Assembly: GCA_964494945.1 (NCBI GenBank)
Contig: CAZBTX010000001.1
Coordinates: forward strand, 3,088-67,087
Reading direction: 5' to 3'
DNA length: 64,000 nucleotides
From: an uncultured Candidatus Saccharibacteria bacterium
Lineage (GTDB): Bacteria; Patescibacteriota; Minisyncoccia; Sungbacterales; JACQCQ01
Part shown: positions 129 to 53,702 of the stretch, piece by piece
How positions within the stretch are numbered: the first letter of the stretch is position 1
Layout: the number at the start of each line of letters is the position of its first letter
Translations under genes and position numbers: made by a program
Notes under the pieces: model-generated
The model's database searches: none
What the model was told of the DNA's origin: nothing
What the model saw: the letters and a program-made list of their open reading frames with translations, nothing else

Positions 129-190
129 TTCACGATCTTGAACGGCGACCCGCCTTCGTTAAAACTTCGGCGGACAAGTAAATGCGTGAA

Positions 191-217
191 CCCCCACACC
201 AAAATTTGGTGTGGGGG
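191..217. repeat. Perfect hairpin CCCCCACACC-aaaattt-GGTGTGGGGG, related to the CCCCACACC-terminus repeat family. Possibly the terminator of the upstream gene.
   Basis: 10-bp perfect inverted repeat with a 7-nt loop, read directly. The same arm sequence forms the ends of the elements at 1248, 6461, 8035 and 14357. Confidence 0.5.
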
Positions 218-310
218 TAGAGCGCGGAGCAAAGAATTTTATTGGACCTAGGTCACAGGCCTGCCTGCCGGTAGGCAGGCTCGATTCCACGCACCGGAGC
301 CATCCTTTAC

Positions 311-1247: not shown

Positions 1248-1360
1248 TATTTATCCCCACACCTTCCTGAATACCCTGCGGTCTTGCCGCGAGGATGAAG
1301 GGCGGATTCAAATTTTTCCCGCGGGGTTCAATGCCCAGTGAGAATGTGTGGGGATAAATA
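1248..1360. mobile_element. MITE-like palindromic element, long form of about 113 bp, with TATTTATCCCCACAC / GTGTGGGGATAAATA terminal inverted repeats
   Basis: 15-bp perfect terminal inverted repeats. The internal sequence is about 85% identical to the copy at 14357-14470 (CCTTCCYGAATACCC..CGGTCTTGCYGCGRGGATGAAGGGCGGATTCARAT). Confidence 0.65.
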
Positions 1361-6389: not shown

Positions 6390-7667
6390 ATGAGGAAGTT
6401 GTTATTTATTGCATTGATCGGCATCGGACTTTTACTGGCGCTCGCTTGGGGCGTTGCCTTTTATCCCCACACCTTCCCGAATACTCCGTGGGAGGGTGTG
6501 GGGATTTATTGGGAAAACTTGCGCGGAGCGTGGTTTGCGGTAAAACCCGCCGCACCCAAAATAACTGAAAAAGAGACCGTTTCGGAACTTCCTTTAAAAT
6601 TACCGGCAGACCTTTCCATTTCGTTATTCGCCAAAGACCTTCCCGGCGTTAGAGTCATGGCGCGTGACTCTTTTGGTAACTTTTGGGTAAGTCAGACATC
6701 AGAGGGCGTGATCTCATTTTTGGAAATGGAGGGCGGTAAAGTAAAAAGCCAAAGTATAATACTCAAGAATTTGAAAAAGCCGCACGGTCTGGCCTTTGAC
6801 CCCGAAAATCCTTTTACGCTTTACTTTGCGGAAGAAGATAAGCTCTCAAAAGTGACGGTCTATCCCAACGGGCTCCCACAAAAAATCGCTGATTTGCCGT
6901 CGGGTAGTGGGCACTTTACGCGGACCATTGGATTTGGGCCGGACGGGCGGCTTTATGTTTCCATTGGGTCTTCCTGCAATGTTTGCCGCGAATCTGATAA
7001 CCGGCGCGCCGCTATTTATTCTATGAAAAAAGATGGGTCGGACTTTAAATTATATGCCAGTGGTCTTCGTAACGCCGTATTTTTTACTTGGGCGCAGGAC
7101 GGAAAATTATGGGCGACGGATAACGGTCGTGATCTACTGGGGGATGATCTGCCGCCGGATGAAATCAACATCATTGAATCCGGCAAGAATTATGGTTGGC
7201 CGATTTGCTACGGCAAAAACATACATGACACCGTCTTTGATAAAAATACTTATATTCGCAATCCGTGCATGGAACCGTTTGAAACACCATCTTATATAGA
7301 CCTGCAGGCGCACTCGGCGGCCCTGGGACTCGCTTTTGTACCCCAAAACGGTTGGCCGGAGGATTATCAGGGTAACCTGATAGTGGCTTATCACGGCTCC
7401 TGGAATCGGACCGAGCCGACTGGGTATAAAGTAGTGCGTGTTAAATTGAATTCTTCGGGCGAATTTTTAGGCATTGAAGATTTCATTACCGGTTGGCTCC
7501 GACGCTCCGACGAGAAGTCAGGAGTCGGAGTCCCGACCGTAACGTCGGGACTGACTTCATCGGGCAAAGTTCTAGGCCGTCCGGTTGGAGTTTTCGCCGA
7601 GCCGGGTGGGGTGGTCTACATTACAGACGATAAAGCGGGGATAATATATAAGATAAGCAGAAAATAA
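6390..7667 (+). CDS. PQQ-dependent soluble sugar (glucose/sorbosone) dehydrogenase-like beta-propeller protein
   Basis: Signal peptide. Overall similarity to the YliI/sGDH-type pattern (GPDGRLYVSIG, WATDNGRD, NYGWP). Confidence 0.7.
   Translation: MRKLLFIALIGIGLLLALAWGVAFYPHTFPNTPWEGVGIYWENLRGAWFAVKPAAPKITEKETVSELPLKLPADLSISLFAKDLPGVRVMARDSFGNFWVSQTSEGVISFLEMEGGKVKSQSIILKNLKKPHGLAFDPENPFTLYFAEEDKLSKVTVYPNGLPQKIADLPSGSGHFTRTIGFGPDGRLYVSIGSSCNVCRESDNRRAAIYSMKKDGSDFKLYASGLRNAVFFTWAQDGKLWATDNGRDLLGDDLPPDEINIIESGKNYGWPICYGKNIHDTVFDKNTYIRNPCMEPFETPSYIDLQAHSAALGLAFVPQNGWPEDYQGNLIVAYHGSWNRTEPTGYKVVRVKLNSSGEFLGIEDFITGWLRRSDEKSGVGVPTVTSGLTSSGKVLGRPVGVFAEPGGVVYITDDKAGIIYKISRK
6461..6508. mobile_element. 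Short copy of the ATCCCCACACC-terminus MITE-like family, inserted in-frame near the 5' end of the PQQ-dehydrogenase gene
   Basis: ATCCCCACACCTTCCCGAATACTCCGTGGGAGGGTGTGGGGAT. The same termini and CTTCCCGAATAC core as the copies at 1248 and 14357. It encodes YPHTFPNTPWEGVGIYW within the ORF. Confidence 0.6.
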
Positions 7668-8392
7668 TGGCGGATAACCAATATAACGAGGCCTATATTA
7701 AAGCCAAAGAGCAACAGGCGGAAAAGCACAAGGAGGTTTCTCACGAAAGATCAAAAGACCGCTTGCCGCCCGGCCAAGTACTTACTAAAACCTTTCCCAT
7801 TCTGGATTTGGGTATTAGGCCGACTTTAGACCGTTATCCCAAGTGGACACTGGAGGTTAAGGGTAACGTGGAAAATCCGATCGTATTATCCATTGATGAA
7901 GTGAAAAAAATGGCCGATACCGATATTACGGCTGATTTTCATTGTGTGACGCGTTGGTCGCGGTATGACCTGCATTGGTCGGGGGTCCCATTTTCTAAGA
8001 TCATGGAGCTTGTAAAACCTCGTCTTTCCGCAAACCCCCACACCAAACGAGAACAGCTGGAGAGTATGAATTTTAGTAGTGTCAGTCCTCGTTCTGGTGT
8101 GGGGGTAAAATTCATAGTTTTCCATTCTTTTGACAAATATACGACGAACGTAACTTTGGATGACGTAATGCAAAAGAACGTTATTGTGGCGACAAAACTG
8201 GAAGGCGGCGAAATACCGCCGGAGCACGGCGGGCCGATCAGGATGATACTGCCGCATCTTTACGGCTGGAAATCGGCCAAATTCTTAACGGCGATTGAAT
8301 TTGTGGACGAAGATAAACCCGGTTTTTGGGAGGTACGGGGATACTCCAATAGAGCGCGCCCCTGGATTGAGGAGAGATACAGTGGCGATTAA
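7667..8392 (+). CDS. Sulfite-oxidase-family molybdopterin oxidoreductase (YedY/MsrP-like catalytic subunit)
   Basis: Motifs typical of the SO family, including the CVTRWS cysteine-ligand region. Its ATG overlaps the stop of the upstream gene (TAATG). Confidence 0.7.
   Translation: MADNQYNEAYIKAKEQQAEKHKEVSHERSKDRLPPGQVLTKTFPILDLGIRPTLDRYPKWTLEVKGNVENPIVLSIDEVKKMADTDITADFHCVTRWSRYDLHWSGVPFSKIMELVKPRLSANPHTKREQLESMNFSSVSPRSGVGVKFIVFHSFDKYTTNVTLDDVMQKNVIVATKLEGGEIPPEHGGPIRMILPHLYGWKSAKFLTAIEFVDEDKPGFWEVRGYSNRARPWIEERYSGD
8035..8105. mobile_element. 71-bp palindromic element CCCCCACACCAAACGAGAAC...GTTCTGGTGTGGGGG, inserted in-frame inside the YedY-like gene
   Basis: 15-bp near-perfect inverted repeat whose outer arms equal the 191-217 hairpin and the MITE termini. 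It encodes NPHTKREQLESMNFSSVSPRSGVGVK in the ORF. Confidence 0.55.
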
Positions 8393-12390: not shown

Positions 12391-13284
12391 TCAGTATTGG
12401 TAAGTGTCCACGATGAGGCTGTTTTCGTCGTAGAGGGTTATAATATCGTGGAGTTCGCGCCAGAGTTTTTCGGTGCGGTTTAGATATAGATGCCAGGTGT
12501 TCCTGTAAAAATCTGAAGCATTCCTGAAGTCGTCAACGCACCCCCGGTAATGCATATGATTGGCGATAAATTGGGTACATTCGTCTCCGATGCCGATGGT
12601 GGCCTCACCGGAAATAACGGGTATGCGGCAGGTCGAAAATTTACTTTCTAAAAAGCGCAGGCACACGTCTTTTAAGCTGACAAGTTTGGCAATATCGATC
12701 CGCGGGCACGATTCCGAAAGCCGCGGCGAGAAATCGTTATTTTCGTTAAGGTATCCCGTGCAGGCGTTCTCCCGAAATCCAACATTGACAGGACTGGAAC
12801 CCGTGTGGATGAAAGCTTCTTGATTAGGTTCAAATTTTACCACCGACTTATCAGACACTAACGGGATCAGCGCACCCTCTCCTAAGAGATAACGCTTACC
12901 CTGGGTGTTCGCGAGGGACCAATTGTGAATGTAGATCGGCCCTTTCTTATTCCCCGTATTGTAAATTCTCACGTATTGATCGCGAATCCCGCCGTAGGCC
13001 GCGCCGCTGACGCTTGAAATTTTAACGCTGCCGCGGAAGCCAGAGATGCCAGATTCTGGTTTTAGCACCGGTGCCGGCGGTTCATAACCCGTGCCGCCTG
13101 CCGGAGCCGGTTCTTTAACTCCAGCCGGTGATGAGCCCCAAAACCCGCCGCCGGGTCCGGAGGCGCGGGGGCCGGGAGATAAGAAGTTAAATCCCAAAGT
13201 CCCTTCTTTCACGATGCCAAATCCGCCGGTTGCGATTACCGCGACCGCCACCAAAAGCCCAAAAATTAGAAATACTTTGTCCAT
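12391..13284 (-). CDS. Secreted/membrane-anchored protein with a lamin-tail (LTD)-like domain
   Basis: SVSGAAYGGIRDQYVRIYNTGNKKGPIYIHNWSL is an LTD-like pattern. N-terminal TM anchor. Confidence 0.45.
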   Translation of the reverse strand: MDKVFLIFGLLVAVAVIATGGFGIVKEGTLGFNFLSPGPRASGPGGGFWGSSPAGVKEPAPAGGTGYEPPAPVLKPESGISGFRGSVKISSVSGAAYGGIRDQYVRIYNTGNKKGPIYIHNWSLANTQGKRYLLGEGALIPLVSDKSVVKFEPNQEAFIHTGSSPVNVGFRENACTGYLNENNDFSPRLSESCPRIDIAKLVSLKDVCLRFLESKFSTCRIPVISGEATIGIGDECTQFIANHMHYRGCVDDFRNASDFYRNTWHLYLNRTEKLWRELHDIITLYDENSLIVDTYQY

Positions 13285-13394
13285 CCCGTTAGAAGCAGAT
13301 CGCGATCAGAGTCGCTTTCTGCTTATAATAATCTCTTAATAATGCCATAATTTATTCTTTAAACTTCTTTCGCGATCGCGGCTTCTAACGGGAT
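13283..13394. repeat. Palindromic element of about 110 bp with ATCCCGTTAGAAGC / GCTTCTAACGGGAT termini (repeat family 2)
   Basis: 14-bp perfect terminal inverted repeat. Its arms CCGTTAGAAGCAGATCGCGATCAGAGTCGCTTTCTGC recur in inverted orientation at 17531-17644. Confidence 0.6.
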
Positions 13395-13413: not shown

Positions 13414-14484
13414 TTATAGAAGCACCGCGCCGATGATATCAGGATGTCCGCGTATGAATTCTTCGGCGGTCATCGACTTTCCGCCCGCGGGGCATAATCG
13501 GTCAACGGCCAACGCTCCCTTCGCGGTTTCCACCGCCATAGGCGTTCCCTCGGCTCGCCAGACGGTGCCGGGCGGATTCACCCGAGTACTCGGTATGGCG
13601 CGAGCGGCTTCTATCTTCAAGCGTAGCGCATCACGGTCCCTCTGCCAAAAACAGTGCGATTCGGGCCAGCGGAGGTAAGCCCTGATCTGGCGTTCCAACT
13701 CTTCGGCGGTTTTATCCCACGTGAGCTTGCCGTCCTCTTTTTTCAGTATTTTCGTGTAGGTCGCGAACGCATGGTCTTGCGGAGCCGGTTCTAAACTCCC
13801 TTGAAGCCAGGCCGGAATGGCATTTTTGGCGCACTCCGCGCCAAGTTTCGCCAGCCGCTTTGAAAGCGTTTGTCCGGTATCCCGGTCTTCAATCCGGAGT
13901 CGCGCTTGGGTTAAAATCGGGCCGTGGTCCATTTCTTTGTCCATTAGCATAATAGTGACACCGGTCTCTTTTTCTCCCGCCAGAATAGCGCTTTCAATCG
14001 GGGAAGCGCCGCGATACTTGGGAAGGAGCGACGGATGGATATTCAAAGCGCCGTGCCTGGGAATGCCGAGAATCTCATCGGGAATTATCTTGCCGTAAGC
14101 CGCCACTAAGAAGAGGTCGGAGTCTAGATCGCGCAACATTCTCACAAACTCTGGGTCGCGCAAGGTTTCCGGCTGGAAGATTTTAATACCGTGATTTAGG
14201 GCGAATTCTTTCACGGGGGTAGGGGATAATATTTGGGCTCTCCCCACCGGACGTGGGGGGTTGGTAACTACCGCTACTACCTCCATTCCCGCATTCAAGA
14301 CCTCCGAAAGCGCCGGCACGGAGAATTCAGGGGTGCCCCAAAAAACAATGCGCGGGTTTTTATCCCCACACCTTCCCGAATACCCCACGGTCTTGCTGCG
14401 GGGATGAAGGGCGGATTCAGATCCTTCTCGCGGAGTATAATACCCCGTGGGAAGGTGTGGGGATTTATTAGAAACGTGTTTCAT
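13414..14484 (-). CDS. fmt: Methionyl-tRNA formyltransferase. The six-frame ORF carries an N-terminal extension encoded by the MITE-like element; the functional start is probably near 14350.
   Basis: Core PRIVFWGTPEFSVPALSEVL...HPSLLPKYRGASPI is the Fmt pattern. No ATG or GTG lies between the MITE and the conserved RIVF segment. Confidence 0.85.
   Translation of the reverse strand: MKHVSNKSPHLPTGYYTPREGSESALHPRSKTVGYSGRCGDKNPRIVFWGTPEFSVPALSEVLNAGMEVVAVVTNPPRPVGRAQILSPTPVKEFALNHGIKIFQPETLRDPEFVRMLRDLDSDLFLVAAYGKIIPDEILGIPRHGALNIHPSLLPKYRGASPIESAILAGEKETGVTIMLMDKEMDHGPILTQARLRIEDRDTGQTLSKRLAKLGAECAKNAIPAWLQGSLEPAPQDHAFATYTKILKKEDGKLTWDKTAEELERQIRAYLRWPESHCFWQRDRDALRLKIEAARAIPSTRVNPPGTVWRAEGTPMAVETAKGALAVDRLCPAGGKSMTAEEFIRGHPDIIGAVLL
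14357..14470. mobile_element. MITE-like element, long form of 114 bp, exactly filling the def/fmt junction
   Basis: TTTTTATCCCCACACCTTCCC...GGGAAGGTGTGGGGATTTATTA is a 16-20-bp terminal inverted repeat. The interior is about 85% identical to 1248-1360. Confidence 0.65.
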
Positions 14485-17459: not shown

Positions 17460-17530
17460 TATTGTGCGGGACCCTTTTGTATTTAGATTGACGCATACAT
17501 ATTTCTTTGAGAAGATAGCTTTGATGGAGT

Positions 17531-17644
17531 CCCGTTAGAAGCCGCGATCGCGGTTCGCGGGTTTAAATAGCAATGAAGCTAGAACTAATAAAACAATCTA
17601 ATTCGCAGAAAGCGACTCCGATCGCGATCTGCTTCTAACGGGAT
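17531..17644. repeat. Second copy of repeat family 2 (CCCGTTAGAAGC termini), inverted relative to 13283-13394
   Basis: GCAGAAAGCGACTCCGATCGCGATCTGCTTCTAACGGG is the reverse complement of the left arm of the first copy. ATGGAG lies directly outside both ends. Confidence 0.6.
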
Positions 17645-18842: not shown

Positions 18843-19020
18843 TTCAAAAATCAAAATGGAAAATGACGAGTAGAACGACTAATTAACCTAATTTCTAATT
18901 ATTCTAATCAAATCCCAATGTCTAATGACGCAATGATTTAAAATAATAATTAATGAGTCGTTGGACATTCAGGCATTAGACATTGATTAGATTAATTAGA
19001 ATAATTAGATATTCATATGG
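18843..19020. repeat. AT-rich intergenic palindromic element of the CTAAT-motif family
   Basis: Left arm CTAATTAACCTAATTTCTAATTATTCTAATCAAATCCCAATGTCTAATGACG. Right arm CATTAGACATTGATTAGATTAATTAGAATAATTAGATATTC is its approximate reverse complement. Confidence 0.55.
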
Positions 19021-19469: not shown

Positions 19470-19564
19470 AATAAATTCAAAAATCAAAAATCAAAAGTCA
19501 AAATGACAAATCAAAATTCAAAAATAAATTGCCGAAGGCGTACCAAAATTTTGCACTTTGACTT
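19470..19564. repeat. Long imperfect AT-rich hairpin element ending at the pyrG start codon, with a GCCGAAGGC apical hairpin
   Basis: AATCAAAATGACAAATCAAAATTCAAAAAT and TTTGACTTTTGCATTTTGC also occur in 32370-32490 directly upstream of murG. Confidence 0.5.
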
Positions 19565-19585
19565 TTGCATTTTGCATTTGTAACT

Positions 19586-21930: not shown

Positions 21931-21969
21931 AATTTGTGAAATAAATCGAAGATTCTCGACGGCAGAGGT

Positions 21970-22040
21970 GGGCCCTTAGCTTAGTGGCAGAGCACCCGGT
22001 TTGCATCCGGGAGATAGGAGTTCGATTCTCCTAGGGTCCA
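21970..22040 (+). tRNA. tRNA-Ala (anticodon UGC) embedded in a 13-bp extension of its acceptor stem
   Basis: Manual cloverleaf: G3:U70, anticodon loop TTTGCAT, T-arm AGGAG-TTCGATT-CTCCT. Flanking CGACGGCAGAGGT/ACCTCTGCCGTCG extends the acceptor helix. No encoded CCA. Confidence 0.8.
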
Positions 22041-22054
22041 CCTCTGCCGTCGGA

Positions 22055-22095
22055 ACATCCGGAAGGCGGGAGTTCGATTCTCCCATGGTCCACCA
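22055..22095 (+). pseudogene. 3' half of a tRNA-Ala gene (anticodon-stem 3' strand, variable loop, T-arm, acceptor 3' strand plus CCA)
   Basis: ACATCCGGAAGGCGGGAGTTCGATTCTCCCATGGTCCACCA is highly similar to the 3' half of the tRNA at 21970 and complementary to the acceptor strand of the 21560 remnant. Confidence 0.55.
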
Positions 22096-22096
22096 A

Positions 22097-22130
22097 TCTC
22101 AAAAACGCGCCCGCGGGCGCGTTTTTGAGA
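22097..22130. terminator. Bidirectional terminator TCTCAAAAACGCGCCCGC-GGGCGCGTTTTTGAGA
   Basis: 17-bp perfect palindrome with A/T runs on both sides. Confidence 0.7.
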
Positions 22131-22229
22131 TTGACCTCTGTTGCTCGTTGACGGCCGGTTTTTTGTATGCTATAGCTTGCGAAACGGTTTAAACGCCCTT
22201 TACCAATTTGGGAGAAGGAGAGGTGACCA

Positions 22230-23057
22230 GTGAAACAGAAATGGGGACGGATTCCGTTCGTTCTTCTGGCCGCGGCGGCCGTCATGCTGGCGGGGGTGCC
22301 TACTCTCGCCCGCGCTTTTGAGCCGACACGGCTTCTGCAGTGGAATCAGGAAGAGCGCCTTTCCGCGAATATCCTCGGCCGCTACTTTCTCCTGAACAAC
22401 CGGCCGGTCCAGCGGGGCACGCCGGAAAGCAGCTCCTCGGCGGCCTGGGAATACGGCCTGCGGCTGCAGTACCGCATTCTGGAAGTCCCGTCGCTCGGCA
22501 AGCTTGAGGCCTATGCCGACAGCGAGGGCTTCACGCACGAGGACGTTTTTGACAGCTGGCAGGTTCTGGTTCAGCTCGGCTGGACGCTGCGTAACTTCCG
22601 GGTTTCACTCGGGCACTTGCGCGAGCTGAATGTCGGACGCGGCAACCAGCACGGCGACGGAAGGCACGGCGCGTTCCAGCTTTGGGTGGGACCGGATGTC
22701 AAAGTCGTAGATACCGAGAAGTGGCTGGTTGACGCTTACGGACGTTATTTCATCAAGGCGAACATCCAGGCCTCCGTGAGCAACCGGCTGGACGAGGGGA
22801 ATGCGATGCTGGGAGAAGTCGGACTGCACGCGACCTATCGTCTCCTTCCTTACCTTTCCTTGAACGCATCTCCCTACGTTCTCGCGGACGACAAGGTTGA
22901 ACGCCTCGGTGTCTATCCTGCTGTCATCTTTGACGTAAGCAAGAAACTGCCGTTCGTTCCCGCGGGTATGTCGCTTGAGCTCGGGGGCAACTTCGGCTCT
23001 TCCGTTCATCGGCGCGAAGAAGTGGTTTGGTTCGGCCTTAACTGGAAACTGAAGTAG
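22230..23057 (+). CDS. Putative outer-membrane beta-barrel-type protein (MipA/OmpV- or DUF481-like). On a GC-rich island.
   Basis: Signal peptide, alternating amphipathic beta-strand pattern and a C-terminal aromatic-rich strand (VVWFGLNWKLK). RBS GGAGAAGGAGAGG. Confidence 0.35.
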   Translation: MKQKWGRIPFVLLAAAAVMLAGVPTLARAFEPTRLLQWNQEERLSANILGRYFLLNNRPVQRGTPESSSSAAWEYGLRLQYRILEVPSLGKLEAYADSEGFTHEDVFDSWQVLVQLGWTLRNFRVSLGHLRELNVGRGNQHGDGRHGAFQLWVGPDVKVVDTEKWLVDAYGRYFIKANIQASVSNRLDEGNAMLGEVGLHATYRLLPYLSLNASPYVLADDKVERLGVYPAVIFDVSKKLPFVPAGMSLELGGNFGSSVHRREEVVWFGLNWKLK

Positions 23058-23080
23058 CGTGCCGGCCAGCGGATTTGTGG

Positions 23081-23125
23081 GCGGCCTCGCCATCGGGCGA
23101 GGCCGCCTCTTCTTTTTGTTTTTTT
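23081..23125 (+). terminator. Terminator GGCGGCCTCGCC...GGCGAGGCCGCC followed by a T-run
   Basis: Perfect GC stem and TCTTCTTTTTGTTTTTTTG tail. Confidence 0.7.
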
Positions 23126-23292
23126 GTGCATGAAATGGCCTGTTTAGAAAACCATTTTTACTTTACTGGTAAACCGATTGCAAAAATACGGTTTTTATTG
23201 TATTTTCAAGATAAGTAGCAGTCCTTTGATGTGCTGGTCTTCAAGTGGGGACCTAACATAAATTTCGCAGGATCTGGAAAGAGAGGTGAGTC

Positions 23293-23658
23293 ATGAAGAG
23301 GTTCGTCGCCGTACTTCTCGTCGTCATCGCTGTCGCGATGCTGGCCGGGCCGGTCGAGGCGCACCGCCACCACTGGGGCGGCCACCACCACTGGGGTGGT
23401 TCGTACTGGTGGGGACCCGGTCCCTACTGGGCTCCAAACCCCCTCTGGGCACTGCCGTATTACGTTCCGCCGCCCGTCGTGCGGGAGAGGGTCATCGTCG
23501 TTCCGGCCCCACAAGAGGAGCCGCAGACCTACGTCCAGCAACAGTCGCCGCCCGTGCAGTACTACTGGCACTTCTGCCGAAGTGCGAATGGGTACTACCC
23601 CTACGTGCCAACGTGTCCGGAAGCGTGGGAGCGAATCCCAACACAACCGCCTAAGTAG
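23293..23658 (+). CDS. Secreted His/Pro/Trp-rich small protein with a C-terminal YYWHFC...YYPYVPTCPEAW motif
   Basis: Signal peptide. HRHHWGGHHHWGG repeat. The C-terminal aromatic/Cys motif is recalled from proteobacterial periplasmic proteins. Confidence 0.4.
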   Translation: MKRFVAVLLVVIAVAMLAGPVEAHRHHWGGHHHWGGSYWWGPGPYWAPNPLWALPYYVPPPVVRERVIVVPAPQEEPQTYVQQQSPPVQYYWHFCRSANGYYPYVPTCPEAWERIPTQPPK

Positions 23659-23680
23659 CGGCTAGAGAGGAGGTACGGAG

Positions 23681-24235
23681 ATGTTGAGAAAAAGCGCCAC
23701 GAGGGCTGTTGCTCTTCTCTTGCTTGCGGTCTTCGCCGCCGGTTGCGTATCGCTGCCGCGCGAGGGTCCGTCCAATCCTGCCTTGATGGGACATGGGAAG
23801 AATGTCGCCCAGTACTACCAGGACGACCAGAACTGCCGAAATCTGGCGCTGGCAAGAGTCGGAAAGTCGCCGCAGGAAGCCGCCAACGAAAGTCAGGTGG
23901 CAAGCACTATCATCGGTACTATCATCGGTGCGGCGGTGGGTGCGGCGATTGGCGCCGCCACTGGTAACGCCGGTGCTGGCGCTGCCATAGGCGCTGGCAC
24001 TGGTTTCGTCGGAGGCACAGCAGCTGGCGCAAGCGCTGCCGCCGAGTCGGCAGTTGCCTACCAGCGGCGGTACGATGCAGAATACAACGTCTGCATGTAC
24101 AACGCCGGTCACCAGGTCCTAGGGCGTCAGGCGGTTCCGCAGTACGCGCCGCCGCCCTCACCTCCTCCGGGTTATGCGCCCCCGCCTCCTCCCGGTACAC
24201 CGCCACCGCCCCCTCCGGGAGTTCTGCCCCGGTGA
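23681..24235 (+). CDS. Lipoprotein with a glycine-zipper domain (SlyB / 17-kDa-antigen-like) and a proline-rich tail
   Basis: Lipobox LAVFAAGC. IIGTIIGAAVGAAIGAATGNAGAGAAIGAGTG is a GxxxG zipper. C-terminal PPPxP repeats. Confidence 0.55.
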   Translation: MLRKSATRAVALLLLAVFAAGCVSLPREGPSNPALMGHGKNVAQYYQDDQNCRNLALARVGKSPQEAANESQVASTIIGTIIGAAVGAAIGAATGNAGAGAAIGAGTGFVGGTAAGASAAAESAVAYQRRYDAEYNVCMYNAGHQVLGRQAVPQYAPPPSPPPGYAPPPPPGTPPPPPPGVLPR

Positions 24236-32369: not shown

Positions 32370-32490
32370 GCCGTCAGGCTGTAGGCAAAAATCAAAATGA
32401 CAAATCAAAATTCAAAAATTAAACACTCTATAATTATCCCGAAGGGATACCTTAATTTTGACTTTTGCATTTTGCCTTTTAAATTTATTG
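32370..32490. repeat. AT-rich imperfect hairpin element ending at the murG start codon, with a TCCCGAAGGGA apical hairpin; related to 19470-19564
   Basis: Shares AATCAAAATGACAAATCAAAATTCAAAAAT and TTTTGACTTTTGCATTTTGC with the pyrG-upstream element. Confidence 0.5.
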
Positions 32491-33631: not shown

Positions 33632-35113
33632 ATGAACGTTCGTGTTCGCATTGCGCCTTCTCCCACCGGACATCTGCATGTCGGCACCGCGCGTTCGGCG
33701 CTTTTTAATTATTTGTTCGCCAAAAAAGCAGGCGGCGAATTTATTTTGCGCATTGAAGACACCGACCGCGAGCGGTCAAAAAAAGAATACGAAGAGGGGA
33801 TTATTGAATCACTAAAGTGGCTTGGCCTTGATTGGGATGAGGGGCCGATCAGACAAAGTGAACGAGTTGATATTTATAAGAAATATATTTCTCAATTGCT
33901 AAAAAATGGTAAGGCATTTGCCTGTTTTTGCGAAAAAAATATTATCGAAAAAGAATTAAAGGACGACCAGCATTATATGCATTATTGTCCATCGAGGAAT
34001 GATGCTTTTAATTCAAATGAAATAAGGCCATTCGTTATTGCCTATAAGAACGACGACTTTGGAGAGCAGCAAAAACAACTTAAACACGAATTACAAAATA
34101 CAAAAAAGATTGGTGGTTTTAGGACTGTGAGTTTACCAACTGAAACAAAAACGTGGATAGAATTTAGCGATGAAATTAGGGGGGAGTTCAGTTTTCCTAA
34201 AGAAATATTTGGTGATTTTATCATCGCAAAAAGTCTCGAGGAGCCACTCTATAACTTTGCGGCAGTTGTTGATGATTATGAGATGAAAATATCGGATGTG
34301 ATCAGAGGAGAGGACCACCTCCCTAATACACCTAAACAGATTCTTCTTTATGGGGCACTTGGTTGGCAACCACCAAAGTTTGCCCATCTTCCGCTTCTTT
34401 TGGGAACTGATCGTTCAAAGCTTTCTAAACGTCACGGAGCGACTTCGGTGATTGAGTTTCGGAAAGAAGGATATTTACCCGAAGCTTTAATCAATTTCCT
34501 GGCGTTACTCGGCTGGAACCCCGGGGGCGAGCAAGAAATCTTCTCACTTAATGAGTTAATTGAAAAATTCTCGCTTGATAAAGTAAATAAGTCGGGTGCT
34601 ATTTTTGACATAGCGAAGCTTGATTGGATGAACGGCGAATATATCCACAAGATGGCTGTCTCTAAACTTGCGGATTTGCTTTCGCCGTTCATGGATAATG
34701 CCGGACTGGATGCCGCTAAGATGCCGAAAGAAAAATTAGAAAAAATAGTGGCTTTGGAGCAGCCCCGCCTTAAGCGCCTTGCCGAGATAGGGGAGAAGGT
34801 AAAATATTTTTTCCGCCAGCCGGAATATGATAAAGAGTTGCTGCGGTGGAAGAATATGAGCGATGAGGAAGTTGCTGACTGTCTTAAAACGGCGGAAAAA
34901 ATAATTTCCAATTTCCAATTTCCAATTTCCAAAGCGGTGATTGAAAAGGCCTTTTTACATGAGATAGGGGAGGGGGACAAAGGGAGAGTTCTTTGGCCGC
35001 TGCGGGTGGCGTTAACCGGTCTTCGATCTTCACCCGGCCCTTTTGATATCATTGAGATCCTGGGACGGGACGAGTCAATTTCGCGCCTAAGGCGCGCCAT
35101 AAATTTGCTCTGA
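33632..35113 (+). CDS. gltX: Glutamate--tRNA ligase
   Basis: HLHVGTARSALFN (HIGH) and KLSKRHG (KMSKS) class I motifs. Confidence 0.9.
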   Translation: MNVRVRIAPSPTGHLHVGTARSALFNYLFAKKAGGEFILRIEDTDRERSKKEYEEGIIESLKWLGLDWDEGPIRQSERVDIYKKYISQLLKNGKAFACFCEKNIIEKELKDDQHYMHYCPSRNDAFNSNEIRPFVIAYKNDDFGEQQKQLKHELQNTKKIGGFRTVSLPTETKTWIEFSDEIRGEFSFPKEIFGDFIIAKSLEEPLYNFAAVVDDYEMKISDVIRGEDHLPNTPKQILLYGALGWQPPKFAHLPLLLGTDRSKLSKRHGATSVIEFRKEGYLPEALINFLALLGWNPGGEQEIFSLNELIEKFSLDKVNKSGAIFDIAKLDWMNGEYIHKMAVSKLADLLSPFMDNAGLDAAKMPKEKLEKIVALEQPRLKRLAEIGEKVKYFFRQPEYDKELLRWKNMSDEEVADCLKTAEKIISNFQFPISKAVIEKAFLHEIGEGDKGRVLWPLRVALTGLRSSPGPFDIIEILGRDESISRLRRAINLL

Positions 35114-36475: not shown

Positions 36476-36964
36476 GTGGTTGTTTATAATAAATATATGC
36501 CATCAGATTTACCCCCACACCGGGAAGCCACAGCTAGAAGGCTACGGAGTAATAATCGTCCGCTCCCAGAGGGAAATTACTTAGACGCCACACTCGTAAA
36601 GGCGTGGTATGGGGGTTTACGATATCGCACCTGGGTCGCGGCATCCTTGCTTTTGCCGTCTTTGGCGCTGGCAGGCACTATACAGATGACCCCCTTAAGG
36701 ATCTTAACGCCGGATGAATTTCTGCGAACGCTTGGTTTTCAAATTTCAGCCGGTGAAGTGAGTGGCCGCGCCCAGAATATCCTTCAAGACATAGAGGCAA
36801 GATTCAGGCAAAGCAGGGGAATGGAGTTGGTGCAATATGTGGAAAAAGATACGGGCATTAATCTAATAGCGCTCGTAAGAAATATTTTGACCATTTCAGC
36901 GTACCTTTTCGTACAAATATTCGCGATTATTTCCGATATTGCTTCTAAACTAGCCGCGCCTTAG
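36476..36964 (+). CDS. Hypothetical protein. Its 5' part overlaps a degenerate CCCCACACC...GGTATGGGGG segment.
   Basis: ORF only. No family recognised. Confidence 0.3.
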   Translation: MVVYNKYMPSDLPPHREATARRLRSNNRPLPEGNYLDATLVKAWYGGLRYRTWVAASLLLPSLALAGTIQMTPLRILTPDEFLRTLGFQISAGEVSGRAQNILQDIEARFRQSRGMELVQYVEKDTGINLIALVRNILTISAYLFVQIFAIISDIASKLAAP

Positions 36965-37753: not shown

Positions 37754-38926
37754 ATGCGCACTTCTTATTCAGCGCTGGCCACCTTCAAGCAGTGCCCCAA
37801 GCGCTTCCAATTCAAGATTTTGGACAAAGTCAAAGAGCCCAAGACCAAAGAGCAGGTCTTCGGGACGCTTATTCACGATTGCCTCCACTTTATGTTTCAG
37901 CATGATCCCCTGTTTCCTACTCTGGATCAAGTGCTGGAGCATTATTATGAGAATTTTCCATCCGACGGTTGGCAAGAATCGGAAGCCGAGATTTATAAGA
38001 AACAAGGTGAAACTATGCTTAAGAAATTCTACGCGCATAATCAGCCGTGGAACTTCGTGGTACTTGACTTGGAATCGCGTTTTGAAGTGACGCTGGAGGA
38101 CGCCCAAGGCGGTACCACACATATTTTAGCCGGTATTATGGATAGGATTGATAAACTGCCCGACGGCCGAATTGAGATCATTGATTACAAAACGCAAAAA
38201 CGCATTCCCCCGCAAGACACGGTGGATAAAGATCTCCAACTTTCCATTTACGCTATGGGGCTTAAAAAACGCTGGCCCCATATTGAAGCTGGCAATATAA
38301 AGTTGTCCCTGCAATTTTTGAAGCATGACGAAAAGTTAACCACCACGCGATCCGAGGACGATTTTAAGAGAACCGAAGCTGAAGTGTTGAGGATGATTAA
38401 GGACATTGAATCTCGCGTTGCCGCGGGGCGCGGTTTTGAGCCACGCGTTTCCCCTCTTTGCGACTTTTGCGGGTATAAGCCGCTCTGCCCCGCCTGGAAG
38501 CATTTATATAAGAATGTAAAAAATGAAACAATTGACGGCGCTAAAATCTCCGGGGTCATCAAGGAATATTTTTCTTTGCGTGAAGAAAAACAAAAAGCCG
38601 AAGTCCGCCTAAAAGAGCTGGGGGTTCTGCTCACCCGCTATTTGGCCCAGGAAGAGATTGACAGGGTTTTTGATGAGGTCGGCGTGATCTCTAAGCGCCT
38701 TTTGGAAAAATACTCTTATGACTTTGAAAAGATACGTTCTATCCTGGAGCCGCTGGGCAAATGGCAGGACATTCTGAAAGCTGACGAGGCCAGATTGAAA
38801 AATATTATGAAGGAAATTCCCGAGTGGGCCCGAGAAGAGATAAAAAAGTCCCGTTCATTGGTTCATTCATCAATTACGCTTGCGGCTACCAAAAAGAAGA
38901 TTAAGTTGCCCGAGGCCAGTGGTTAG
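37754..38926 (+). CDS. PD-(D/E)XK-superfamily nuclease (RecB/Cas4-like) with a C-terminal Cys cluster
   Basis: GIMDRID...EIIDYKT resembles the D...E-x-K nuclease core. CDFCGYKPLCP resembles the Cas4/AddB-type Fe-S Cys motif. Confidence 0.6.
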   Translation: MRTSYSALATFKQCPKRFQFKILDKVKEPKTKEQVFGTLIHDCLHFMFQHDPLFPTLDQVLEHYYENFPSDGWQESEAEIYKKQGETMLKKFYAHNQPWNFVVLDLESRFEVTLEDAQGGTTHILAGIMDRIDKLPDGRIEIIDYKTQKRIPPQDTVDKDLQLSIYAMGLKKRWPHIEAGNIKLSLQFLKHDEKLTTTRSEDDFKRTEAEVLRMIKDIESRVAAGRGFEPRVSPLCDFCGYKPLCPAWKHLYKNVKNETIDGAKISGVIKEYFSLREEKQKAEVRLKELGVLLTRYLAQEEIDRVFDEVGVISKRLLEKYSYDFEKIRSILEPLGKWQDILKADEARLKNIMKEIPEWAREEIKKSRSLVHSSITLAATKKKIKLPEASG

Positions 38927-39791: not shown

Positions 39792-39821
39792 TCACTTTAA
39801 TACTGTACAGTATTAAAGTGA
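39792..39821. promoter_or_regulatory. 30-bp perfect palindrome TCACTTTAATACTGTACAGTATTAAAGTGA
   Basis: Read directly. It overlaps the stop codon of the TrpR-like gene 39813-40235. Confidence 0.55.
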
Positions 39822-40235: not shown

Positions 40236-40242
40236 ATGCTTT

Positions 40243-40270
40243 TACTTTAATACTGTACAGTATTAAAGTA
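40243..40270. promoter_or_regulatory. 28-bp perfect palindrome TACTTTAATACTGTACAGTATTAAAGTA, 8 bp upstream of the TrpR-like start codon
   Basis: Same 20-bp core TTAATACTGTACAGTATTAA as the sites at 39792 and 40463. Confidence 0.6.
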
Positions 40271-40462
40271 AAGAAAAGGAAGGATTTCTAGTGACCATTC
40301 TAATAATCATGTTGACATATTGGGGTGCAAAACCTTGTATTTTTTGGACGAGTTTATGGCGGTAAATTTAGAAATTGTCCGCCGGAGACGGATCCGCCTT
40401 TGGCGGAAAAATTTTGATCAGCTGCTAGGCGTTGAACTGGCTGTGGTGACTAGAGAAGAGTT

Positions 40463-40494
40463 CTCACTTAAATACTGTACAGTATTTAAGTGAG
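40463..40494. promoter_or_regulatory. 32-bp perfect palindrome CTCACTTAAATACTGTACAGTATTTAAGTGAG
   Basis: Variant of the same operator-like core. It lies between the giant-protein gene stop at 40550 and the TrpR-like promoter. Confidence 0.55.
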
Positions 40495-40549: not shown

Positions 40550-43500
40550 TTAACTGCTTGGCGTGGAACTGGCGGTGGCAGTGGTGGATGAGGCGGTGTC
40601 GGTGGTTGAGGCAGCGTCAGCTCCGACGCTAGCGTTCGGAGCCCCGACCCCTTCGGGCGTCAGGGTTGTTGTCGGCGTTGTGATTGTGGTGTCGGTTGAG
40701 TCGGCAGTCGGCGTGGTGCTGGCCGTGTCTGTCGGCGTGAATGAAGCTATGGGGCTTACGTCCGAGATCGGCGGCAAGCCGTCGCAATTTCCCGAAATGG
40801 TGCTGACGGCGCCACGCTCTATGAATACGCAATATGCCGCTTTGGTGGCGCGATCAAAAAGCGTAATGCCGGTCGGGGCTTCAGTAGAGCCGACGGTTAA
40901 GTGGTCGGTTTCGATATACTTCATCGTCATGCGCCCCGTCTCGTCAATTTTCCAAAGGCCGTTTTGCGAGACGATTTGTCCGACTCCCAAGAGGGCATTG
41001 CCGTTTAAGTTCACATCCCCGTAGAAGTTGACATTCACCTTGCCCGTAGTCTGATCCACCGACCAGCCATTAGTCGCTATTCCCTGTTCGCTATTCGCTG
41101 CTAGCTGGGTCGTTCCTTCATCAAGCTTTGAGTAGCCGAGGTTGATGAAAACCAGGATTTTGCCGGTTTTCACCGTCTGGCCGTCGGGAAGTCCGACTTC
41201 GGCGGTGTTTGAAGTCGGACTTCCAACAGTTGAGTCGTCAAAGTTTTCTAGAGCTATACCCACTGTCACGCCGGATACGGTAGCTTTCATGCCTACTCCT
41301 GCAAGCGAGGAGGAAGTTATCCTGTCGCCTATCTTGATGGGGCCGGATTCGGTGGAAACCTTAACGGGAACGCGGCCGTTCAAAGCAACGGGAAGTTTGT
41401 TTATGGTTTCGGGAAGATTCTTTCCTGCCGAGGTAAAATCAGAGTAATTATTTGAGGTGATGCCAAGGAGGTTTGATTGATAAGCGGTAGTGGAACGCTT
41501 AAGTTCGGAAACATATCCCAAGTGAGGCAGGGTGGAACTTGCGCTTCCCTTCTCGTCGCTGGCATAGGTTTCAATCATTTTACTGCCATCTCCCAAAGCC
41601 ACGATCTCGCCGTATTCAATTCCTTGTTCAACCGGATAAAGCTCGGCATAGTCGGCTCCACCGGAAGTGCAGTCGCCGATGCCGCGCAACGCGTCTGCGG
41701 AAAGTTCAGCGCCGCTATAACACATAGCAACGTTAGAAATTTCGTCATCTAGCATGGCCTGCACGGGGTTGCTAGCTGCATTGGCGTCTACTATAAGCCC
41801 ATTAGTCCAGGTGATGGCGTCACCCGCAGTTCCTGATGGCGCCGTGCGAAGAGTTATATCGGCGCCGCTATAATAGATTTGTTGCGCGGGATTTGTAATC
41901 TTATATCTCCAACTTCCGTCGTAGTATATATTTGCGCCAAGTCCCCCATCAACGCTACCAATATTCGTGAGCGAAAGCGTTCTTCCCGCCGAACTATTCC
42001 CAATAACGAGCGCTGGTATAGTCCATCCTGGATCTGAAGGTACGACACCGAGAAATATTTGCTGGTCGGCATTCGGGAGTTGCAAGGTGGGGCCGGCAGT
42101 GTTCACTGTGAGAATGCCATCAGTATCTATTGTCATCCGATAAGCCGCCGCAGTTATATCTCGAATCTGAAATAACCCTGTATCTTGTACACCTACAATC
42201 CAATCCCTACTTGCTTTATTGGAAAATCGTAAACCTACGCTGTTGGTTGCGTCCTGATTCCGTATATTTAATTGAGGCGTACTCGAGTCCAAACTCGACA
42301 TGCCAGAACCAGAAACAGCCAGCACTCCAAACGGACTCGTCGTCCCGATGCCGACGTTGCCGCTTCCATCAATCCTCATCTTTTCTGCCATAGTTGACGC
42401 TGAATTTTGAGTGAAAAACGTAAGTGATCCTGCCGTGCCTCCGACGGCCTCTCGCATCAATCCTATTAGAGCTGCTGGATTACCATTACCAGCGGCGCGA
42501 AACTTAATTTTAGAGCCAGCCCCGACTACGTTAGAGTCGGACAAAAGGTTCAATTCCGTATTATTGTCGTCATAGTATGAAGCCCCGGTCGCTATAGTCG
42601 AGCTTGAAATGTTGAATGTTGCACTCCCCGTATCGCCAGCCGCACTAGTTCCAACCAAAATCCTGCCGTCGCTTCTTATTCGCATACGCTCAGTCGAAAT
42701 ATTAGCGTTATCGGCACGTGTAAAAAACGCAAGGATTCCACCTCGTTTGGTTGCCGTTGTCCCGCTGAGATTAGAGCTGATTCGCGCCACCTCTTTGGAG
42801 AAAGTTCCTCCAGACTGGGCATCTGCGTGAAAAGAAATAACTCCAACATTATCCGCGTCAGCATCAGCGGTAAGGTTGCCGAGCCGCAGGATTCCGTAAT
42901 CGTTCGTAGCATCAAGCACACTAAAGAACGAATTTCCTGAACCATAAGGACTGGTGGTAATTAGCGATGCATCAGCAGCATCACCACTTCCAAAAATACC
43001 GTTACCCACAACCGATAACTTGGAGCCCGGACTCGTCGTCCCGATGCCGACGTTGCCGTTGGGAAAGTTAACGCTCGAAATCGTCGCCCCACTGCGCTTC
43101 ACATTCAGCCAAGAATTGGCCGTGGCAAGGGAATCATTTAATGCTCGAAAATCAAATTCGCCCGCCGTCAGCATCCCTGGCCCAAAATCCCAAATCTTGT
43201 TGTCAGCGGTGGCATTGGTGTTATTCATCACAATGCCGGTGGTCGCCCCCTGGATTTCCAACTTGCCATCATGCCCCGGCCCGATACGCGCCGTGCCTCC
43301 GATCTGCACATCCGCTGTACCAGAACCAGCCGCTTTCAAGATATGCAAGCCAGAGGCCGGATTCGTTGTCCCGATGCCGACGTTGCCGGATGTTTGCTGA
43401 ACCACGAATTGATTTGTCCCCACAGTAAAGCCGCCCGTAGCTATTGTAGAAGTAGCGGTAGTAGAAGTGGCAGAGAAGTTGTTGGAAACAATTTGGCCGG

Positions 43501-47954: not shown

Positions 47955-48545
47955 TTATCCTCTTAAACTGAAGAATTTTTTAGCCGCATTTTCCTCCGTG
48001 CCCAGGGACCTTACTTCAAGGCAGTTGACTCCCCCATCAAGGCCGAAAACCTCGCAAATGAATTCAATTTCATCTTCGCAGGGCAGGAAATGCGCGAAGA
48101 CACTTTTTTGGAGTTTATAAAAATTCATGTCATTTAATTTTTTGGACAGGGCGTCGCGCGCCTGTTTTTTATTTTCAGGAATATCAAACATCACTACGCG
48201 CCAGAGGCCGTCCCAGCGCGGTGTATTTTTTAATTTGAGATTCTCTAGATTATATTGGCGCAACCTTTTCTCTCCGGTTGCCGTTAGACGCAACAATGTT
48301 TTGTTGCCGGAATTTTCATGTTCCAAAAACTTTTGCCGGCGCAGGCGTTCAATCGCCACACGAATGCTGTTTTTTCGTTTTCTGCCAATGCCAATTTTTT
48401 CCAGCCGCGGGAGAAAAAGATCACTGATGGAAGCGTCTCTTCGCGAAGAAAACGCGGCGGGGCGGTCGCGCAAAATAGAAAGTATTTCTTTGGCGATAGT
48501 CCCCTTTTTTAAATTTTCCCCGCGCTCAACAGCGATTTTGGGCAT
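47955..48545 (-). CDS. PaaX-like architecture: N-terminal winged helix fused to a C-terminal Cas2/VapD-like ferredoxin-fold domain. Putative regulator, not CRISPR-associated.
   Basis: C-terminal WRVVMFDIPENKKQARDALSKKLNDMNFYKLQKSVFAHF matches the Cas2-like pattern (hhhh-FDI...R..L...G-F..LQ-SVF). The N-terminal 100 aa is basic and HTH-like. No cas1 or repeat array in the window. Confidence 0.4.
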   Translation of the reverse strand: MPKIAVERGENLKKGTIAKEILSILRDRPAAFSSRRDASISDLFLPRLEKIGIGRKRKNSIRVAIERLRRQKFLEHENSGNKTLLRLTATGEKRLRQYNLENLKLKNTPRWDGLWRVVMFDIPENKKQARDALSKKLNDMNFYKLQKSVFAHFLPCEDEIEFICEVFGLDGGVNCLEVRSLGTEENAAKKFFSLRG

Positions 48546-53050: not shown

Positions 53051-53150
53051 AATATCAATTAATTTTTAATTTCTAATTACTAATTTCTAATCAAACTTAA
53101 ATATCTAATGACCAACTTAAAGATTTAAAAATTTGGGAATTAATCATTGA
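53051..53150. repeat. CTAAT-family AT-rich palindromic intergenic element between dnaK and grpE
   Basis: TTTCTAATCAAACTTAAATATCTAATGACC and an inverted GGACATT..GATTAGGAATTAGGGATTAGATATTGG partner. Confidence 0.5.
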
Positions 53151-53702
53151 TTAGGAATTAGGGATTAGATATTGGACATTTTTATAGACTTTTACCTTGG
53201 CGGGACGCAGGACACGCCCGCCGCGCATGTACCCTCTTTGCATTTCTTCCGCGATGATTCCCTGCTCGTGGTCTTTAGATTCAATTTCATCAATGGCTTC
53301 ATGCAGTTCTGGATCAAATTTAGTGCCGGCAGTTTTTAATGGTTCTACTCCCAGACGCCGCAGGATCTCCAGGCACTGCGACTGGATTAAGTAAAATCCT
53401 TTTCCCGCTTCGTTGGATAGATGTTTTTTATGCTCTTCTCCCAGGGCTAGGTCAAAACTGTCCAAGACCGAAAGAAATTCCAGAATTAATTCGTCTTCCA
53501 GCCGGTCCTTCCAGATTCGTAACCGTTTTTCATCATCTTTTCTGGAATTAATTATATCCGCCTTTGCTCTTTGCCACCCGTCCAGATACTCTTTCTTGTC
53601 ATTTTCGCAGATAGCCAATTTCTCTTTTAATTGTTTTATCTTAGCGACAGGATCGGGGTGAGCGGATTCACCATATTCTTCATTAATTTCCAAGTCATCC
53701 AT
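53151..53702 (-). CDS. grpE: Nucleotide exchange factor GrpE
   Basis: Coiled-coil N-terminus and a conserved C-terminal beta domain (RRLGVEPL...KVKVYK-like). Confidence 0.9.
   Translation of the reverse strand: MDDLEINEEYGESAHPDPVAKIKQLKEKLAICENDKKEYLDGWQRAKADIINSRKDDEKRLRIWKDRLEDELILEFLSVLDSFDLALGEEHKKHLSNEAGKGFYLIQSQCLEILRRLGVEPLKTAGTKFDPELHEAIDEIESKDHEQGIIAEEMQRGYMRGGRVLRPAKVKVYKNVQYLIPNS

Follow-up and report, generated by a model that had tools for sequence, protein, structure and literature searches.

A palindromic MITE-like element lies in frame within a dehydrogenase gene of a candidate phyla radiation bacterium

The dehydrogenase gene and its extra residues

We analyzed a 64-kb stretch of DNA (64,000 nucleotides of contig CAZBTX010000001.1; hereafter, the window) from an uncultured bacterium of the Patescibacteria, or candidate phyla radiation (CPR). 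Near one end, the window encodes a membrane-anchored sugar dehydrogenase of the pyrroloquinoline quinone (PQQ) type, and a short palindrome lies inside this gene (Table 1). The palindrome ends in TCCCCACACC...GGTGTGGGGA, if the terminal T/A pair is included, and is bracketed by a direct repeat of TTTA. The 41-bp element and 4 bp of target repeat together add 45 bp, or 15 codons, to the open reading frame (ORF). Codons 25-39 read as YPHTFPNTPWEGVGI, which in context is (Y)PHTFPNTPWEGVGI(YW). A first-pass annotation, made from the sequence alone, had reported that the repeat lies just after the predicted signal peptide without breaking the frame, and this is so: it directly follows an N-terminal hydrophobic helix (residues 2-24), and the hairpin is 75 nt into the ORF. 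Folded as RNA, the short copy forms a 17-bp stem (-32.3 kcal/mol, z = -5.9). Searches of Rfam found no known RNA family over any copy of the element. We counted 11 occurrences of the nonamer CCCCACACC in the window (0.19 expected), and the arrangement CCCCACACC-N21-GGTGTGGGG occurs once, at 6465-6503 (0.00 expected). There is also a lone GGTGTGGGG half-site with no partner arm at 46007-46015, inside ORF 40550-47617 (minus strand), which is either chance or a decayed remnant.

An alignment of homologues had been named beforehand as the test of whether the 15 residues are a lineage-specific indel, and the alignments confirm that they are. We aligned 22 sequences and then 94, with the window protein included each time. 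The 15-residue block is found in the window protein only: the other 21, and then 93, homologues of the sGDH family lack it and read ...F-YW-NLRG... without interruption. The same residues in unrelated orthologues, which would have pointed to ancestral protein sequence, were not seen. The closest relative is from a different Parcubacteria metagenome-assembled genome (MAG) with the same gene order (locus L001; identity is 73% by the search and 79% when aligned), and it has an intact empty site. In a codon-threaded DNA alignment, L001 has TTT TAT TGG where the window has TTTTA-TCCCCACACC...GGTGTGGGGA-TTTA-TTGG. Empty sites in the DNA of this syntenic locus account for three insertions in the window, of 45 bp, 75 bp, and 54 bp (the latter two are described below).

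The 425-amino-acid dehydrogenase is 100% identical to a protein from a Candidatus Sungbacteria MAG at NCBI. Besides the window, four independent assemblies (three Logan runs and one MAG at NCBI) contain the identical protein, so the 45-bp insert is not an assembly artefact. The insert is fixed in all five assemblies of this population (the window and the four others). Furthermore, the protein retains the expected residue at all 52 of the columns that are invariant among the 94 aligned sequences.

The first-pass annotation had also suggested modeling the structure. In the resulting model (predicted local distance difference test, pLDDT, of 83; predicted template modelling score, pTM, of 0.84), residues 2-24 form a confident hydrophobic helix, and most of the beta-propeller has pLDDT above 90. 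Residues 25-39 fall within 10-residue blocks with average pLDDT of 54-61. In this model, the insert is part of a tether of low confidence that links the membrane anchor to the catalytic beta-propeller. Searching with the model in Foldseek gave PQQ dehydrogenases (E = 7e-23).

The same gene has a second lineage-specific insertion, of 54 bp, with no counterpart in any homologue. It is modeled with pLDDT below 50 and folds weakly as RNA (z = -2.7). The insertion is partly palindromic (GAAGTCAG...GTCCCGAC-CGTAAC-GTCGGGAC-TGACTTC), and we found no second copy of it in the window or in any fetched locus.

Table 1. Genes, elements, and insertions discussed in the text. Coordinates are those of the window; rows without coordinates are from other genomes.
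Feature	Position	Strand	Location	Details
Membrane-anchored PQQ-type (sGDH/AA12-like) sugar dehydrogenase gene	6390-7667	+		425 aa, intact; Pfam GSDH
Left TTTA of direct repeat (target site)	6460-6463	+	Dehydrogenase gene	Part of codons Phe24-Tyr25
Short type-1 copy	6464-6504	+	Dehydrogenase gene, codons 25-39 with one TTTA	41-bp palindrome TCCCCACACCTTCCCGAATACTCCGTGGGAGGGTGTGGGGA
Right TTTA of direct repeat	6505-6508	+	Dehydrogenase gene	Adjoins the short copy
Second lineage-specific in-frame insertion	7497-7550	+	Dehydrogenase gene, aa 370-387	54 bp; LRRSDEKSGVGVPTVTSG
Type-2 element	8035-8105	+	Molybdopterin oxidoreductase gene (7667-8392)	71 bp; CCCCCACACC...GGTGTGGGGG; flanks CAAA/TAAA
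Full-length type-1 element	14363-14463	+	After codon 7 of fmt (13414-14484, minus)	101 bp; 105 bp = 35 aa with TTTA
Full-length type-1 element	1254-1354	+	Apparently intergenic	Degenerate right arm TGTGTGGGG
Type-2b element	36512-36615	+	5' end of hypothetical ORF 36476-36964	104 bp; TTTA-CCCCCACACC...GGTATGGGGG-TTTA
Mini-hairpin	190-218	+	Intergenic	CCCCCACACC-AAAATTT-GGTGTGGGGG
In-frame copy (L013/L032)			YfiH/Cu-oxidase_4 gene (Pfam 6e-46)	Adds about 39 residues compared with PDB 6T0Y
Full-length copies			ORFs for a Nudix protein, a 181-aa membrane protein, and a hypothetical protein
Mini-hairpin copy			F420-ligase-like ORF

The element family and its target

The first-pass annotation had called the short copy a member of a MITE family, and we agree: it belongs to a repeat family with two full-length members in the window. 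The full-length element, which we call type 1, measures 101 bp, has the termini TCCCCACACCTTCCC/GGGAAGGTGTGGGGA, and contains two internal hairpins; each insertion adds 105 bp (35 codons). In one copy (copy B), the arms ATCCCCACACCTTCCC/GGGAAGGTGTGGGGAT form a perfect terminal inverted repeat of 16 nt, and these arms are conserved across 29 loci (see below). Intact copies have 99 bp between the outer C and the outer G, and they are 84-91% identical between genomes. The related types in the window (type 2, type 2b, and mini-hairpins of 27-29 bp) share the terminus only. Across the family, elements are 27-104 bp, which is too small for a transposase gene inside.

We scanned species-representative genomes with a 20-nt arm of the element and found 18 matches on 16 contigs of one CPR MAG (CAYNAP01), one match each in a second CPR MAG and a Candidatus Liptonbacteria MAG, and one chance match. 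The JGI metagenomes gave 11 further real matches. After deduplication, there are 29 independent type-1 insertion loci with unrelated flanks, from at least four MAGs (including the window) and the JGI metagenomes. Of 1.84 billion representative proteins, only nine matched the peptide from one frame of the element (E <= 1e-3). The family is thus real, but it is narrow rather than widespread, at least as judged from that frame. The nine include a ComF-type phosphoribosyltransferase and a 2445-amino-acid protein, both with a diverged variant of the element.

The short copy can be derived from the full-length element. The full element contains a direct repeat, AATACCCC, at element positions 15 and 75, and removing the 60 bp (20 codons) between these repeats yields a 39-bp product. 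The window copy matches this product at 37 of 39 positions, as does a second short copy from CAYNAP01 (L025, 6907-6945). Furthermore, a full-length copy in a Nudix gene (L019) shares its register with the dehydrogenase insert and is 20 residues longer: Y-PHTFPNTP-RSCRGDEGRLKILPTGSNTP-WEGVG-IY in the Nudix protein, and Y-PHTFPNTP-WEGVG-IY in the dehydrogenase. We propose that the short form arose by a 60-bp slippage deletion between the AATACCCC repeats after insertion of a full-length element, or else that it arrived already shortened.

We also considered that the 15 residues might belong to an ancestral or hypervariable linker, or reflect an assembly error, so that the likeness to the repeat is coincidental. 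The linker after the anchor does vary in length in some homologues (such as P0062). However, an element that is derivable from a repeat at 29 loci with just two mismatches, that has the identical TTTAT...ATTTAT flanks and a precise empty site in L001, that is missing from 93 homologues, and that is present unchanged in four other independent assemblies leaves this explanation with almost no credence.

The type-1 insertions share a target and an orientation. In 28 of the 29 loci, the arm that contains GAATAC abuts TTTAT, and at all 22 loci where both ends can be assigned, the arrangement is TTTAT-...-ATTTAT. Therefore, insertion is specific both for the target and for the orientation relative to it. 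The type-1 flanking repeat always has the same sequence, so it is also compatible with insertion beside a fixed target without any duplication. Mini-hairpins are flanked by differing tetranucleotide repeats (TGAA/TGAA and TAAA/TAAA). In CAYNAP01, mini-hairpins are nested within type-1 copies: TGAA is present once in the intact copies and is doubled around the nested hairpin, which shows that the 4-bp target is truly duplicated.

Composite type-1 copies are found at L010 (4369-4520), L011 (6755-6906), L016 (748-883 and 1859-2022), L025 (3044-3205), and L007 (5115-5270). They hold up to two or three nested hairpins, namely CCCCCACACC-loop-GGTGTGGGGG at TGAA, CCCTCCCACCAAAATTTGGTGGGAGGG, and GGCC...GGCC. 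Several families of mini-hairpins seem to insert into one another.

Because the elements have true 4-bp duplications and long terminal inverted repeats, the transposase is probably of the DDE type, and it would act in trans from a gene elsewhere. An alternative is that the hairpins move as single-stranded DNA, using an HUH/Y1 transposase like those of IS200/IS605 or RAYT (repetitive extragenic palindrome-associated tyrosine transposase), and that they insert 3' of TTTAT, always in one orientation and with no true duplication. The right-hand TTTAT would then be part of the element. This alternative would explain why nearly all copies point the same way with respect to the asymmetric TTTAT, the element does contain subterminal hairpins, and the empty-site data fit equally well. 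Because the orientation bias fits poorly with a DDE enzyme, we keep this alternative in consideration. However, it does not account for the TGAA/TGAA and TAAA/TAAA flanks of the mini-hairpins, given that the intact host element has a single TGAA, and DDE-type MITEs (short for miniature inverted-repeat transposable elements) typically have long, perfect terminal inverted repeats. Also, no Y1 transposase was seen in the window, and orientation did not correlate with local GC skew (17:11, p = 0.34, with low power). Overall, we think that single-stranded transposition is unlikely, while giving it appreciable weight. The GC-skew comparison likewise gave no support for specificity for one strand during replication, and we saw no bias towards either strand of genes.

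Reading frames, proposed mechanism, and other repeats in the window

The gene downstream of the dehydrogenase encodes a molybdopterin oxidoreductase, and it carries a type-2 element. This insertion is 75 bp and adds 25 amino acids in frame (ANPHTKREQLESMNFSSVSPRSGVG). These residues are missing from 16 aligned homologues (98 in a deeper alignment) but are present in P0124, a partial protein from the same population, and L001 has an empty site (TCG GTA AAG). As RNA, the element folds with -37.3 kcal/mol (z = -7.0). The model of the protein has pLDDT of 87, which falls to about 55 exactly over residues 122-146, between blocks of at least 95. Foldseek confirms the folds of both this model and the dehydrogenase model. 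E. coli YedY has its own, longer loop in the corresponding region. Another contig, L003 (JACOYZ010000018.1), comes from assembly GCA_016181625.1 of the same population. It leaves the window sequence 143 bp inside the molybdopterin gene and then runs on into a WecG glycosyltransferase; this reflects either a rearrangement or a chimeric join.

The third in-gene copy is near the start of fmt. Homologous Fmt proteins have 2-12 residues before the RIVFWGTPEF motif, versus 44 in the window protein. With the element removed, the protein would begin MKHVSNK-NPRIVFWGTPEF. The ATG of fmt and the end of def overlap. No second canonical start lies downstream of the element, and the sole alternative start in frame is a GTG that the element itself contains. 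In the frame that fmt uses, 9 of 12 full-length copies of the element have a stop codon, but the fmt copy does not, which suggests that translation of fmt runs through the element. The assembly GCA_016181625.1, which is fragmented and represents the same population, breaks at these repeats, and one of its contigs, L002 (JACOYZ010000021.1), ends exactly inside the fmt copy.

Copies within genes are also found in other genomes (Table 1). The insertion in the YfiH gene was recovered in five datasets and lies between aligned blocks of PDB 6T0Y. Among the 29 type-1 loci, there are six firm cases of insertion in the middle of genes for conserved enzymes. In the structural models, the encoded peptides place in low-confidence linkers or loops of otherwise confident folds. 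We also considered hairpins inside the ORFs for GluRS (34805-34903), ScpA, DnaJ, and FtsW as insertions, but rejected them, as the domain lengths fit the Pfam profiles. In the window, a possibly coding type-2b element lies, in the only frame in which it is open, at the 5' end of ORF 36476-36964, which is hypothetical and has no Pfam match.

The lengths of the inserted units, including the repeat, are all multiples of three (33, 45, 75, 105, and 108 bp), so the frame of the host gene is preserved. Frames that are free of stop codons arise because the element is GC-rich. All three in-gene copies in the window have lengths that are multiples of three and lack stops in the frame of the host gene. 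The first-pass annotation had claimed that the arms are read in one shared register at all three sites and that this register has no stop codons. The shared register holds for the type-2 copy (N-PHT...GVG-V) but not for fmt, which uses a different register and the opposite strand of the element, so that its arms read TCC-CCA-CAC-CTT (S-P-H-L) and AGG-TGT-GGG-GAT (R-C-G-D). The register is indeed stop-free, but this is uninformative, as the short copy is open in all six frames. A single privileged register can be rejected, since at least four frames are used across genomes.

Is the element translated at all? The gene might be a pseudogene or use a downstream start, or the element might be removed or bypassed at the level of the RNA or the ribosome, in the manner of the bypass elements known from yeast mitochondria. 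The stability of the hairpin is very high, and the GTG within the fmt element could be an alternative start. However, the dehydrogenase retains every family-invariant residue, the conserved anchor and the FYW-NLRG motif flank the insert, and no ATG-encoded methionine is found from the insert to about residue 90. Furthermore, if the elements were skipped, there would be no need for lengths that are multiples of three, for stop-free frames, or for the absence from the fmt copy of the stop that most copies have in that frame. We consider non-translation to be very improbable. If the insert is translated, then the predicted junction peptide would be ...AFYPHTFPNTPWEGVGIYWENLR, while bypass would instead join F24 to Y40.

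If translated, the insert could have been co-opted: the longer tether, or the hairpin in the mRNA, might function in membrane spacing, in translational pausing for targeting, or in mRNA stability. Fixation of the insert in all five assemblies of the population is consistent with this, as is its site just past the signal-anchor, where pausing could matter, and the YfiH copy is stably inherited across five datasets. But 93 homologues function without the insert, the element is also found in unrelated genes and in intergenic DNA, and the peptides differ according to the frame. The insert is modeled as disordered, and there is no sign of selection on the coding capacity of the element. We think that co-option is improbable, though not as improbable as non-translation.

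Instead, we propose that the 45 bp is very probably the footprint of a non-autonomous, MITE-like palindromic element, from a family in the CPR, which is read as 15 extra residues and persists as a passenger. The element would insert at TTTA(T) and end with the tetranucleotide on both sides. In the dehydrogenase gene, the target would have been the Phe-Tyr codons TTT TAT, just past the membrane anchor. With an added length that is a multiple of three and a GC-rich palindrome free of stops in that frame, the gene would stay open. Transcribed and translated, the element would give 15 extra residues in a flexible tether, would do little harm there, and would therefore persist. The same course of events would have taken place in the neighboring molybdopterin oxidoreductase gene and in fmt.

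Several observations weigh against our proposal. We found no autonomous element or transposase with matching termini in the window (32 ORFs scanned) or in 30 related loci. We found no empty allele of this species in the JGI metagenomes, using the exact junction pattern with relaxed wobble positions; as the insert is present in all five assemblies, recent mobility is not demonstrated. The 28:1 bias in orientation relative to an asymmetric target is unlike what symmetric cut-and-paste by a DDE enzyme predicts. Translation was not observed: we infer both translation and near-neutrality from the intact frames, the conserved residues of the host proteins, and the disordered locations. Finally, the element shows no sign of adaptation or selection for coding. 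Four of the six frames of the full element are stop-free, which is within chance (P = 0.12, or P = 0.38 under a null model that preserves the palindrome, at 62% GC).

Unpaired arms in the related loci, which might have been the ends of an autonomous element, turned out to be truncations at contig ends, a copy with a degenerate arm, or chance (Rheinheimera L014 and L031). A viral vector was rejected, as the type-1 arm is absent from IMG/VR. IMG/VR does contain 41 bare hairpins with 10-bp stems CCCCCACACC/GGTGTGGGGG (L038-L078), but these are ordinary phage terminators and are unrelated to the CPR element. They have A-run/T-run flanks and GC-rich loops, and many are clearly homologous loci of related phages.

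The window contains other repeats and features. Another MITE-like family with inverted repeats (ATCCCGTTAGAAGC...GCTTCTAACGGGAT, 112-114 bp) is found at 13283-13394 and 17530-17643, at gene edges or between genes, and has a 22-nt match in L034. AT-rich inverted repeats of TAATTTCTAATTAC-type motifs, and a second type of AAAATCAAAAGTCAAAATGACAAAT, recur between genes (18890-19013, 53061-53180, 58873-58993, and 62631-62809; also 19480-19579 and 32383-32477); these may be further repeat families or regulatory regions. Perfect palindromes of 30-32 bp (...CTTTAATACTG-CAGTATTAAAG...) are at 39792-39821, 40241-40272, 40463-40494, and 63963-63994, with three of them clustered just downstream of the 3' end of a 2355-amino-acid ORF (40550-47617, minus strand). 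These palindromes resemble operator sites or a further mini-element. The gene for tRNA-Ala (21970-22042) lies within a 20-nt inverted repeat with 95% complementarity (21957-22052), which extends the acceptor stem into both flanks. Near it, the region 22000-24000 has G+C of 0.586, versus about 0.48, with an ORF that has no Pfam match (22230-23057) and a Gly-zipper protein (23681-24235); this is possibly foreign DNA beside two tRNA genes. A PD-(D/E)XK/Cas4-like nuclease and a PaaX/Cas2-like protein are encoded at 37754-38926 and 47955-48545; we did not notice a CRISPR array in passing.

Comparison with known repeats

The first-pass annotation had likened the insert to Rickettsia palindromic elements (RPEs). 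The families RPE-1 to RPE-10 (Ogata et al. 2000, 2002; summaries in PMC10969869 and PMC1779305) are in-frame palindromic repeats in reduced genomes. They are 100-150 bp repeats of the Rickettsiales lineage and are recognisable by RPE profiles (PMC1779305). The likeness holds for behavior. Both are short, palindromic, interspersed repeats of small, reduced genomes, with intergenic and coding copies and with no associated transposase known. Both encode extra peptides that preserve the frame in unrelated, intact genes, including housekeeping genes, at sites that the fold tolerates. Both leave short remnants inside genes, such as the 63-84-bp RPE-7-like insert in pheT. It does not hold for family membership. 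The elements described here are from the CPR or Patescibacteria rather than the Rickettsiales, there is no sign of common descent, and they are 27-104 bp instead of 100-150 bp; as the phylum and the size differ and common descent is not shown, we do not consider them to be RPEs. They are also distinguished by the strict TTTA(T) target, the 4-bp repeat, and the 28:1 orientation bias, by the use of several frames on both strands of the element (versus one conserved peptide for each RPE family), and by far fewer copies, as documented so far. Judged by published descriptions of RPEs, then, the element appears RPE-like in behavior, and host and size set it apart.

We found no description in the literature of such elements in the CPR, Patescibacteria, or Parcubacteria, which agrees with the first-pass annotation's view that this was undescribed for such genomes. 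In bacteria more broadly, the phenomenon is less novel: according to a 2024 review (PMC10969869), in-frame fusions of MITEs to ORFs are also formed by BOX, ERIC, QMITE, and Anabaena elements and are "not unusual."

We tentatively suggest a wider reading, which we lean against but which seems possible. There may be an undescribed CPR superfamily of 27-105-bp hairpin transposons, with termini CCCCACACC, CCCCCCACC, and CCCTCCCACC, that insert in a fixed orientation at TTTA-like targets, nest within each other, move between lineages, depend on an unrecognised and possibly new transposase, and, because their units are multiples of three in length, recurrently supply peptides to proteins. If so, the RPE phenomenon would have a second, independent instance, tied to genome reduction and weak selection, and CPR proteins would have received recurrent peptide insertions, including essential ones such as Fmt.

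So far, palindromes that preserve the frame within genes have been regarded as peculiar to Rickettsia. If another group of host-dependent bacteria with reduced genomes offers a second, independent case, this would support the idea that selfish DNA can settle in the coding sequence of small genomes when selection is weak. It would also support a general route to lineage-specific insertions in proteins. On the practical side, these elements break MAG assemblies and lengthen annotated proteins (such as Fmt), and they could pass for adaptive, CPR-specific insertions. The strict TTTA target and the fixed orientation point to a transposition mechanism that is worth identifying.

The elements also resemble classical MITEs, such as Correia/NEMIS, ERIC, BOX, QMITE1/2 of Coxiella, and the Anabaena elements (PMC10969869, PMC5896051). 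The shared traits are terminal inverted repeats, no coding of a transposase, target-site duplication, dispersed copies, nesting, and occasional extension or interruption of ORFs in frame. But most of the classical elements measure 100-400 bp, and most lie between genes or at gene ends, while the units described here are multiples of three and a sizeable fraction are in the middle of genes. The Correia element targets TA, and the target here is TTTA. In structure, the elements have what defines a MITE, save for a parent insertion sequence, of which the window and the 30 related loci gave none.

Finally, we compared the elements to repetitive extragenic palindromic (REP) sequences, REPINs, and palindromes derived from IS200/IS605. 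The described REP classes are 20-40-bp palindromes with GTAG or CGTC tags, are extragenic, and have a RAYT gene in the genome (PMC3733652). Like these, the CPR elements include very small GC-rich hairpins (20-40 bp) with many copies, have a specific orientation relative to a conserved flanking tetranucleotide, and might move as single-stranded DNA by an HUH mechanism. Unlike REPs and REPINs, they have no GTAG or CGTC head (their heads are (T/C)CCCCACACC with a TTTA flank), they are not confined to extragenic DNA, they have real 4-bp duplications, and their long, perfect terminal inverted repeats extend over the entire element. We found neither a RAYT nor a TnpA gene in the window. With regard to IS200/IS605, the evidence points both ways: the orientation of type-1 copies is specific (28/29), but the TGAA/TGAA and TAAA/TAAA flanks of the mini-hairpins contradict insertion without duplication, and orientation shows no link to the replication strand. 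We regard these elements as a new family of MITEs in the CPR, with behavior like that of RPEs.

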